This document shows, piece by piece, positions 53,022 through 53,340 of a stretch of 64,000 nt of DNA. The first letter of the stretch is position 1. Every line of letters begins with the position of its first letter. A program made the position numbers and the translations under genes. Source of the stretch: Alphaproteobacteria bacterium (GTDB lineage Bacteria; Pseudomonadota; Alphaproteobacteria; Rs-D84); assembly GCA_017524525.1 (NCBI GenBank), contig JAFXVM010000006.1, positions 24,819 to 88,818 of the forward strand, given 5' to 3'. The notes beneath the pieces were generated by a model. That model saw nothing but the letters and a program-made list of their open reading frames with translations, had not been told where the DNA came from and did not search any database.

Positions 53022-53340
53022 CGTCGCGAAAGCGAAGATGATTCTGAATTCGTTGCGGAATAATCGTTTTGGACTGGGGGGCGGTACCCCACAGCTCCAC
53101 CAATATTTCACGGGGCTGACATAGTTTCGACAGGCGAAGTAAAGGCAAATCGATTGAATCCGGGTAGTTCCGTTAAAGACAACTAAAAACTGAATGGCGA
53201 TAGAATCGCTGCGAATGATAATTTCGCATTGCAAATGGCTGCCTAATGTGGCATTGAAATACTTTGGCAATTGTTAGGGTATTTCGTTATAGCTTTTGCG
53301 GGGTCGTCGGGTACCTGGCACCAGAAACCCGACATTAATA
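53022..53340 (+). ncRNA. ssrA: circularly permuted two-piece tmRNA gene: acceptor piece ending ...GGACUGGGGGGCGGUACCCCACAGCUCCACCA (to 53102), 9-nt linker, coding piece starting GGGGCUGAC (53112) with tag frame (A)[14 protein letters not shown] at 53208..53246
   Basis: The 3' tRNA-like T-arm plus the GCUCCACCA end lies upstream of the canonical tmRNA 5' end GGGGCUGA. A G3:U70 pair is possible between GGGGCUG and CAGCUCC. The tag reading frame ends in AA-stop. Confidence 0.8.

Follow-up and report, generated by a model that had tools for sequence, protein, structure and literature searches.

A circularly permuted two-piece tmRNA gene (ssrA) beside obg in a Candidatus Enterousia-group gut alphaproteobacterium

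The locus at 53022-53340 on the plus strand of the 64-kb stretch analysed here (from contig JAFXVM010000006.1; the whole stretch is called the window) is almost certainly a genuine circularly permuted two-piece transfer-messenger RNA (tmRNA) gene, ssrA, from a gut-dwelling alphaproteobacterium that belongs to the Candidatus Enterousia group. It is an ordinary representative of the two-piece tmRNAs of Alphaproteobacteria, a kind already known, and as far as the sequence goes it holds no features that contradict such an assignment. The permutation is apparent from the order of the parts, with the T-arm, the 3' strand of the acceptor stem and the CCA lying upstream of the acceptor 5' strand and the tag frame on the same strand, and a ViennaRNA cofold of both pieces recovers the acceptor stem and the T-arm. 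A first-pass annotation made from the letters of the window had proposed a permuted two-piece ssrA at this place, with ARAGORN in permuted mode and the Rfam alpha_tmRNA model (RF01849) as means of checking it, and both of these, the tmRNA_permuted model (RF04321) and covariation bear the proposal out.

The ARAGORN call is a permuted tmRNA ('tmRNA*') spanning 53010-53337, its tag read from GCU 53208. Infernal aligns 52983-53336 to positions 1-355 of the 355 in RF01849 at 161.2 bits (E=1.4e-44; gathering cut-off 50 bits) and 53040-53246 to positions 1-213 of the 213 in RF04321 at 113.9 bits (E=1.9e-21; cut-off 47 bits), and when the Rfam tmRNA models compete within their clan the alpha model is the top match. 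Neither ARAGORN nor Rfam finds a one-piece tmRNA (RF00023) or a second tmRNA in the window. An acceptor piece ending at 53102, a linker of 9 nt and a coding piece starting with GGGGCUGA at 53112, all given in the first-pass annotation, match the window sequence; of its overall span the locus stands and the end at 53340 is only approximate, the last conserved hairpin ending at 53333 and the models at 53336 and 53337.

The comparative evidence comes from relatives found through the divergently transcribed neighbour, which is Obg (Pfam GTP1_OBG, MMR_HSR1). No exact match to the Obg protein turned up in a look-up. Its closest relatives, sought among species-representative genomes, are 85-99% identical to it and come from 80 gut, rumen or faecal metagenome-assembled genomes (MAGs) that carry the label Candidatus Enterousia or uncultured Alphaproteobacteria, and by blastn a tmRNA homologue adjoins obg in all 80 of the related loci. 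NCBI taxonomy places Candidatus Enterousia among the Alphaproteobacteria incertae sedis, and the earlier inference of an alphaproteobacterial lineage was right; the G+C content of the window is about 38%. RNAalifold on a MAFFT alignment of 47 homologues yields 29 pairs with double-sided changes. When the two-piece structure is curated, 92.2% of alignment cells are paired on the same 47 sequences, against 32-43% with the partners slid by 1-3 columns; compensatory changes occur at 33 pairs against 8-14 in the slid controls, and the covariation score is 0.332 against about 0.05; none of 500 shuffles attains the observed values. Covariation is seen in the T-arm, in P2 and the pseudoknot PK1, and likewise in the 5', the long and the 3' hairpins.

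The locus matters chiefly for annotation and for lineage assignment, in that it confirms an alphaproteobacterial (gut or rumen Enterousia) source. A remark in the first-pass annotation that automated annotators often miss permuted ssrA holds in Enterousia, where ARAGORN called 31 of 59 full-length homologues. The 28 that it misses (about 47%) amount to a clade-specific recall gap, and all 20 of the missed loci that were put to RF01849 were found by it, at 149-175 bits. The practical caution is that ARAGORN alone misses many Enterousia tmRNAs, each of those tested being found by RF01849.

The two pieces and their structure

The acceptor piece, about 81 nt at 53022-53102 (+) as delimited by the Rfam alignment, ARAGORN and covariation, opens with a 5' GNRA hairpin and continues with one P2 strand, the T-arm, the acceptor 3' strand, a discriminator A and an encoded CCA. 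The hairpin, UCGC-GAAA-GCGA at 53024-53035, stands at the start of the transcript, and all 4 of its 4 pairs covary, with double-sided compensatory changes in 10-15 of the 47 homologues; its counterpart in the metagenomic contig JAEEGL010469949.1 (L081) is CCAC-GCAA-GUGG. The P2 strand follows in segments set by the Rfam consensus structure, GAUUC (53040-44), UCGUUGC (53050-56), CGU (53065-67) and UUG (53069-71), and over 53040-53071 its partner in trans is the stretch 53131-53160 in the coding piece. These segments are 87-100% paired across the homologues, and 7 pairs show double-sided changes, as at alignment columns 35:185 (15 double changes), 41:177 (18) and 51:167 (19). The T-arm, UGGGG/CCCCA around the 7-nt loop GGCGGUA (53075-53091 in the Rfam alignment), is paired in 100% of cells, two of its pairs changing from U-A and G-C to C-G and C-G in 13 of the 47. 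It runs directly into the acceptor 3' strand CAGCUCC (53092-98), which pairs with 53112-53118, the discriminator A53099 and the encoded CCA at 53100-53102; T-arm and acceptor 3' strand together read GGGGGGCGGTACCCCACAGCTCCACCA, ending at 53102. A further helix in the cofold, between 53024-33 and GCUUUUGCGG (53292-301), is rejected because on the 47 sequences its support is at the level of shuffles (77% paired against 75% shuffled, 3 double-sided pairs against 2.9) while the local GNRA hairpin covaries at 4 of 4 pairs; given the tolerance for G·U pairs, the cofold helix is improbable rather than strictly impossible.

Between the pieces lies the intervening sequence or linker, 9 nt at 53103-53111 (+), ATATTTCAC in the DNA and AUAUUUCAC in the RNA. 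It is the least conserved segment of the gene and varies from 7 to 143 nt in the Enterousia relatives, as expected for a discarded spacer, and by analogy with the family it would be missing from the mature RNA. Long linkers occur at single loci (143 nt in L012, about 118 nt in L044 and L065, about 55 nt in L019 and L054), and an Rfam scan of long inserts, which covered L012 and L044, matched no family. A class of linkers of about 31-35 nt bears a hairpin of its own, GAUACGA...UCGUAUU, that appears to covary, for example as GAUGCGA...UCGCAUU.

The coding piece, about 225 nt at 53112-53336 (+) by ARAGORN, Rfam and covariation, with an approximate 3' end, begins GGGGCTGA at 53112 and runs through GGGGCUG, the D-loop-like AGUUUCGAC, the second P2 strand (53131-60), PK1, a small hairpin, the tag, the P5 hairpin, a long hairpin and a 3' hairpin. 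The acceptor 5' strand GGGGCUG (53112-53118), whose G53112 is the expected RNase P site, forms with CAGCUCC the 7-bp acceptor stem that joins the pieces, paired in 99% of cells. Within that stem the G53114·U53096 wobble is the equivalent of the G3·U70 alanine identity pair, and C53116-G53094 (5:68) is C-G in 34 homologues, G-C in 11 and A-U in 2, which makes it a compensatory change bridging both pieces. At one related locus (L077:2591-2936, minus strand) the coding piece starts GCCCCUG in place of GGGGCUG and three acceptor-stem pairs are broken, through either an assembly error or damage to the gene.

Pseudoknot PK1 has stem 1 at CGG 53161-63/CCG 53170-72 and stem 2 at UAGUU 53165-69/AACUA 53181-85, and in the homologues pairing in both stems reaches 98-100% and 4 pairs covary, among them columns 195:204 (A-U/G-C), 201:213 (U-A/C-G) and 199:215 (G-C/U-A). 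Directly 5' of the resume codon is the small pre-resume hairpin GCGAU-AGA-AUCGC (53197-53209), found by RNAalifold as columns 233-236 with 242-245; it is invariant in 43 of the 47 homologues and removed in the other 4 by deletion of a 15-nt block. That hairpin block, UGGCGAUAGAAUCGC, is cleanly missing in one sub-clade (L029, L031, L034 and L055; 10 of 80 homologues as judged by an AAU codon before the tag frame), where PK1 therefore lies 15 nt closer to the resume codon. Provided that the hairpin folds where the block is present, the effective spacing between PK1 and the resume codon would be equal with or without it.

The P5 hairpin (UGCC-UAAUGU-GGCA, 53240-53253) holds the stop codon in its loop and is paired in 82% of cells, C-G to U-A double changes being seen in 5 homologues (GCC to GCU with GG to AG). 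The long hairpin of 13 bp, GAAAUACUUUGGC-AAUU-GUUAGGGUAUUUC at 53256-53285, is paired in 98.5% of cells with double-sided changes at 9 of the 13 pairs. The 3'-terminal hairpin, GUCGGGU/ACCCGAC at 53306-53333, is paired in 97% of cells with double-sided changes at 5 of its 7 pairs, and its loop ACCUGGCACCAGAA is invariant and agrees with the Rfam alpha consensus ACCuGGCAACAGAA. These two hairpins at the 5' and 3' termini, of the acceptor and the coding piece, probably serve to protect those RNA ends which lie outside the tRNA-like domain. Two further RNAalifold pairings, UGGA/UUCG inside the conserved motif GUUUCGAC and a long-range helix of the tag's CUUGCAA with UUGCGGG, show no covariation and were not adopted.

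Upstream of the gene the sigma70 promoter of the first-pass annotation is present, with −35 TTGCAA at 52987-52992, a 17-nt spacer and −10 TATAAT at 53010-53015 (+), 10 of the 12 positions matching the consensus. Among the 80 homologues TTGCAA is kept in 76, TATAAT in 70 and the 17-nt spacer in 57, and a transcription start at about 53022-53023 is predicted.

Some results weigh against this account of the gene. Stem 1 of PK1 is clear in the window, and the register of stem 2, set by inspection, is uncertain. No intrinsic terminator was found directly after the tmRNA gene, which bears on the mature 3' end; the first terminator-like site is a hairpin with a T-run at 53619-53645. Finally, tblastn finds no match to smpB in the 64-kb window, a weak test made with an approximate E. 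coli SmpB query.

Tag frame and resume codon

The tag frame at 53211-53246 (+) reads GCG AAU GAU AAU UUC GCA UUG CAA AUG GCU GCC UAA, that is 11 residues and the stop UAA at 53244-46. The first-pass annotation had given a tag frame at 53208-53246, with the preceding GCT codon in front (GCT GCG AAT GAT AAT TTC GCA TTG CAA ATG GCT GCC TAA), which matches the window letter for letter; the frame is right, while its '(A)' notation is ambiguous as to where the tag begins, and GCG 53211 is favoured over GCU 53208. The resume codon is thus probably GCG 53211, with the first Ala of the (A)-tag supplied by the charged tmRNA. Resumption at GCU 53208, which would encode a 12-residue tag, is the less likely choice, though it has some support: it is the start that ARAGORN takes, it is in frame, and it precedes the tag frame in 70 of the 80 homologues that could be scored. 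In the other 10, however, the codon before the frame is AAU, and there the frame must begin at GCG. Moreover, in the Rfam alignment GCG 53211 falls on GCa, the resume codon of the alpha tmRNA consensus, and G53208 and C53209 fall within the stem of the conserved pre-resume hairpin.

With homologue frames anchored on the conserved GCN-AAY-GAY-AAY, an 11-codon frame of the form ANDN-xxxx-(M/I)AA plus stop is kept in all 80. The commonest tag is ANDNVRLAMAA (59), followed by ANDNVRFAMAA (10), ANDNVRLAIAA (3), ANDNVRIAMAA (2) and ANDNVSLAMAA (2), with ANDNVQLAMAA and ANDNRPLAMAA once each and the window's type twice (the window and L081). Set against the 78 genus homologues the window tag differs by two single-base indels (−1/+1) and by no substitutions: it is without the G that follows AAU 53220-22 in them, and its run at 53233-35 is one A longer, relatives reading AAT-G-TTCGCATTGCA-ATGGCTGCC and the window AAT-TTCGCATTGCA-A-ATGGCTGCC. 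The pair of indels turns VR(I/L)A into FALQ, with the frame restored for MAA and the stop.

An odd tag of this sort could have come from an assembly error, namely insertion of an A into a homopolymer run, and this is ruled out by L081, the only hit for this variant when metagenome contigs were scanned for exact matches. L081 is from a different species, its flanks being only about 80% identical to those of the window and its tmRNA carrying independent compensatory changes, and its tag DNA is identical. Because the variant recurs unchanged in an independent contig of another species, the FALQ tag is, to go by these sequences, a real and inherited trait of a sub-lineage.

A hairpin over the first tag codons (GCGAAC...GUUCGC) is kept in every variant, with 5 bp left in the window, and in L046 and L077 a G-C to U-A double change retains it at the cost of an Arg-to-Ser replacement. 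These observations hint that the tag region is under a joint constraint on RNA and peptide. Such a double constraint, on the peptide termini and on the hairpin spanning the resume codon, may explain how the middle could be rewritten with the ends and the hairpin kept. The compensated frameshift is in effect a small natural experiment, in which the ANDN and MAA ends are kept while the four residues between them can vary freely.

Proposed processing and its alternatives

By analogy with characterised members of the family, the locus would be transcribed as one precursor, which RNase P would cut 5' of G53112, leaving the linker as a 3' trailer after CCA53102 for removal by tRNA 3'-processing nucleases. 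The two resulting RNAs would be held together by base pairing in the acceptor stem and P2. AlaRS would then charge A53102, and SmpB and EF-Tu would bring the complex to ribosomes that have stalled on a broken mRNA, where translation would resume at GCG 53211 (less likely at GCU 53208) and stop at UAA 53244. The appended (A) and 11-residue tag would act as a C-terminal degron for ClpXP-type proteases, and the tagged product would be degraded. For permuted tmRNAs in general it has been described that tRNA enzymes produce the two pieces, which are base-paired with each other (PMC11915505); for this locus the steps of cleavage, charging and trans-translation are inferred from what is established for the family.

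A decaying, non-functional copy of a permuted tmRNA, with the indels in the tag as the signs of decay, is a very improbable account. It could point to the two indels that set the window tag apart from the 78 genus homologues and to the broken acceptor stem of L077, from which it follows that damaged copies or assemblies do occur. The two indels compensate each other exactly, though, bringing ...MAA and UAA back into frame, and the identical tag in L081 with its diverged flanks implies maintenance across species; the pairs of the tRNA-like domain, the G3·U70 equivalent, the CCA and the promoter are all intact, and the 161 bits against RF01849 lie inside the 149-175 bits of the relatives. Still harder to credit is that the RNA works as a single piece, with the linker kept as a 9-nt loop closing the acceptor stem. 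Such a loop would fit the shortness of the linker (9 nt here, 7 nt in some relatives), and the minimum-free-energy fold of the precursor is as stable as the cofold; aminoacylation nonetheless needs a free 3' CCA, and the gene has an invariant CCA precisely at the junction, the linker with its 7-143 nt is the least conserved part, as for a discarded spacer, and the family is described as two-piece after processing (PMC11915505). A functional gene giving a processed two-piece RNA is therefore the reading kept here.

Surroundings of the locus and known systems

The boundaries of the tmRNA gene correct an error in its neighbour. A mechanically called open reading frame (ORF) at 51939-53270 (−), of 443 aa from a TTG start, carries Obg through the entire tmRNA gene. 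Obg in fact begins with the ATG at 52943 (MKFLDKAK), relatives matching from residue 1, and an ORF-based annotator keeping the spurious extension could mask the tmRNA altogether. On the other side the gene order of ssrA, a 77-aa hydrophobic ORF, a Lon-like gene and tsaB is conserved across Enterousia. The 77-aa ORF (53363-53596, +), presenting as a membrane protein and lying directly after the tmRNA, has no Pfam or NCBIfam match and is kept in 79 of 81 related loci at 51-85% identity. It may be co-transcribed with the tmRNA precursor, because the sole local terminator-like hairpin lies after it.

Two genes downstream of ssrA is a Lon paralogue of 585 aa (53687-55444, +) with LON_substr_bdg, AAA and Lon_lid domains and, read by eye from the ORF translation, a Walker A motif GAPGVGKT and a Walker B motif VLDEID. 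No protease domain was found in it, the endopeptidase La profile matching over positions 2-563 of 795 and below its curated cut-off. It ends at a stop at 55444, and tsaB begins at 55459; in many Enterousia genomes the paralogue likewise has its full length and runs up to tsaB with no space for a protease domain between them, which makes the absence of that domain a trait of the genus, not a truncation. Elsewhere in the window tblastn finds no match to a Lon protease domain, again a weak test with an approximate E. coli query. It is quite improbable that ssrA, the 77-aa ORF and the protease-less Lon form a conserved quality-control module with the Lon protein as unfoldase or adaptor for tagged proteins, and any functional link between the paralogue and tmRNA tagging is speculation.

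The ssrA locus shows no genomic island or integrase, its neighbours being housekeeping genes. Also near the locus, ORFs at 51338-51946 (−; 202 aa, also without an NCBIfam match), 55913-56332 (+; 139 aa) and 56795-57181 (+; 128 aa) have no Pfam match, and a PIF1-like helicase gene (57171-58442, −) adjoins a tRNA-Met at 58536-58612.

The two-piece tmRNA class has been known since 2000, and its alphaproteobacterial prototype is said to be the Caulobacter crescentus ssrA, reportedly the work of Keiler, Shapiro and Williams (PNAS, 2000). Against that form, as captured by RF01849, the window gene has the same order of acceptor piece, CCA, spacer and coding piece, the same unusual T-loop GGCGGUA, the same 5' hairpin, the same 3' hairpin loop, ACCUGGCA(A/C)CAGAA, and the same promoter consensus. 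Its tag begins ANDNF and ends in a hydrophobic residue and AA, as does the Caulobacter tag (A)ANDNFAEEFAVAA. It differs in a spacer of 9 nt compared with about 28 in the RF01849 consensus, in a shorter tag (11 codons), in a host of low G+C (about 38%) from an uncultured gut lineage and, within its own genus, in a tag middle rewritten by the compensated frameshift. Its company is large, a 2025 tmRNA database holding 11,946 unique permuted sequences from GTDB genomes (PMC11915505).

With the permuted forms of Betaproteobacteria (RF01850), Cyanobacteria (RF01851) and mitochondria (RF02544) it shares a circularly permuted order and a tRNA-like domain that comes together in trans, and it is only this shared domain that the merged model RF04321 covers in giving the window its 113.9 bits. 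In contrast to all three it has the alpha-specific 5' and 3' terminal elements, and unlike the mitochondrial forms, which are without a tag frame, it has a tag. The one-piece tmRNA (RF00023, as E. coli SsrA) shares with it the G3·U70 acceptor stem, the T-arm, P2, PK1 before an Ala resume codon, the stop in the P5 loop and a C-terminal degron ending in AA, whereas simple hairpins stand in the window gene where the one-piece RNA has PK2-PK4. Above all the 3' half of the tRNA-like domain is here encoded upstream of the 5' half, and so a one-piece RNA with a free CCA is impossible without cleavage. The points particular to this locus, namely the short spacer, the compensated tag frameshift, the correction of the resume codon and the recall of ARAGORN, are minor, and the known picture of trans-translation is left unchanged by it.

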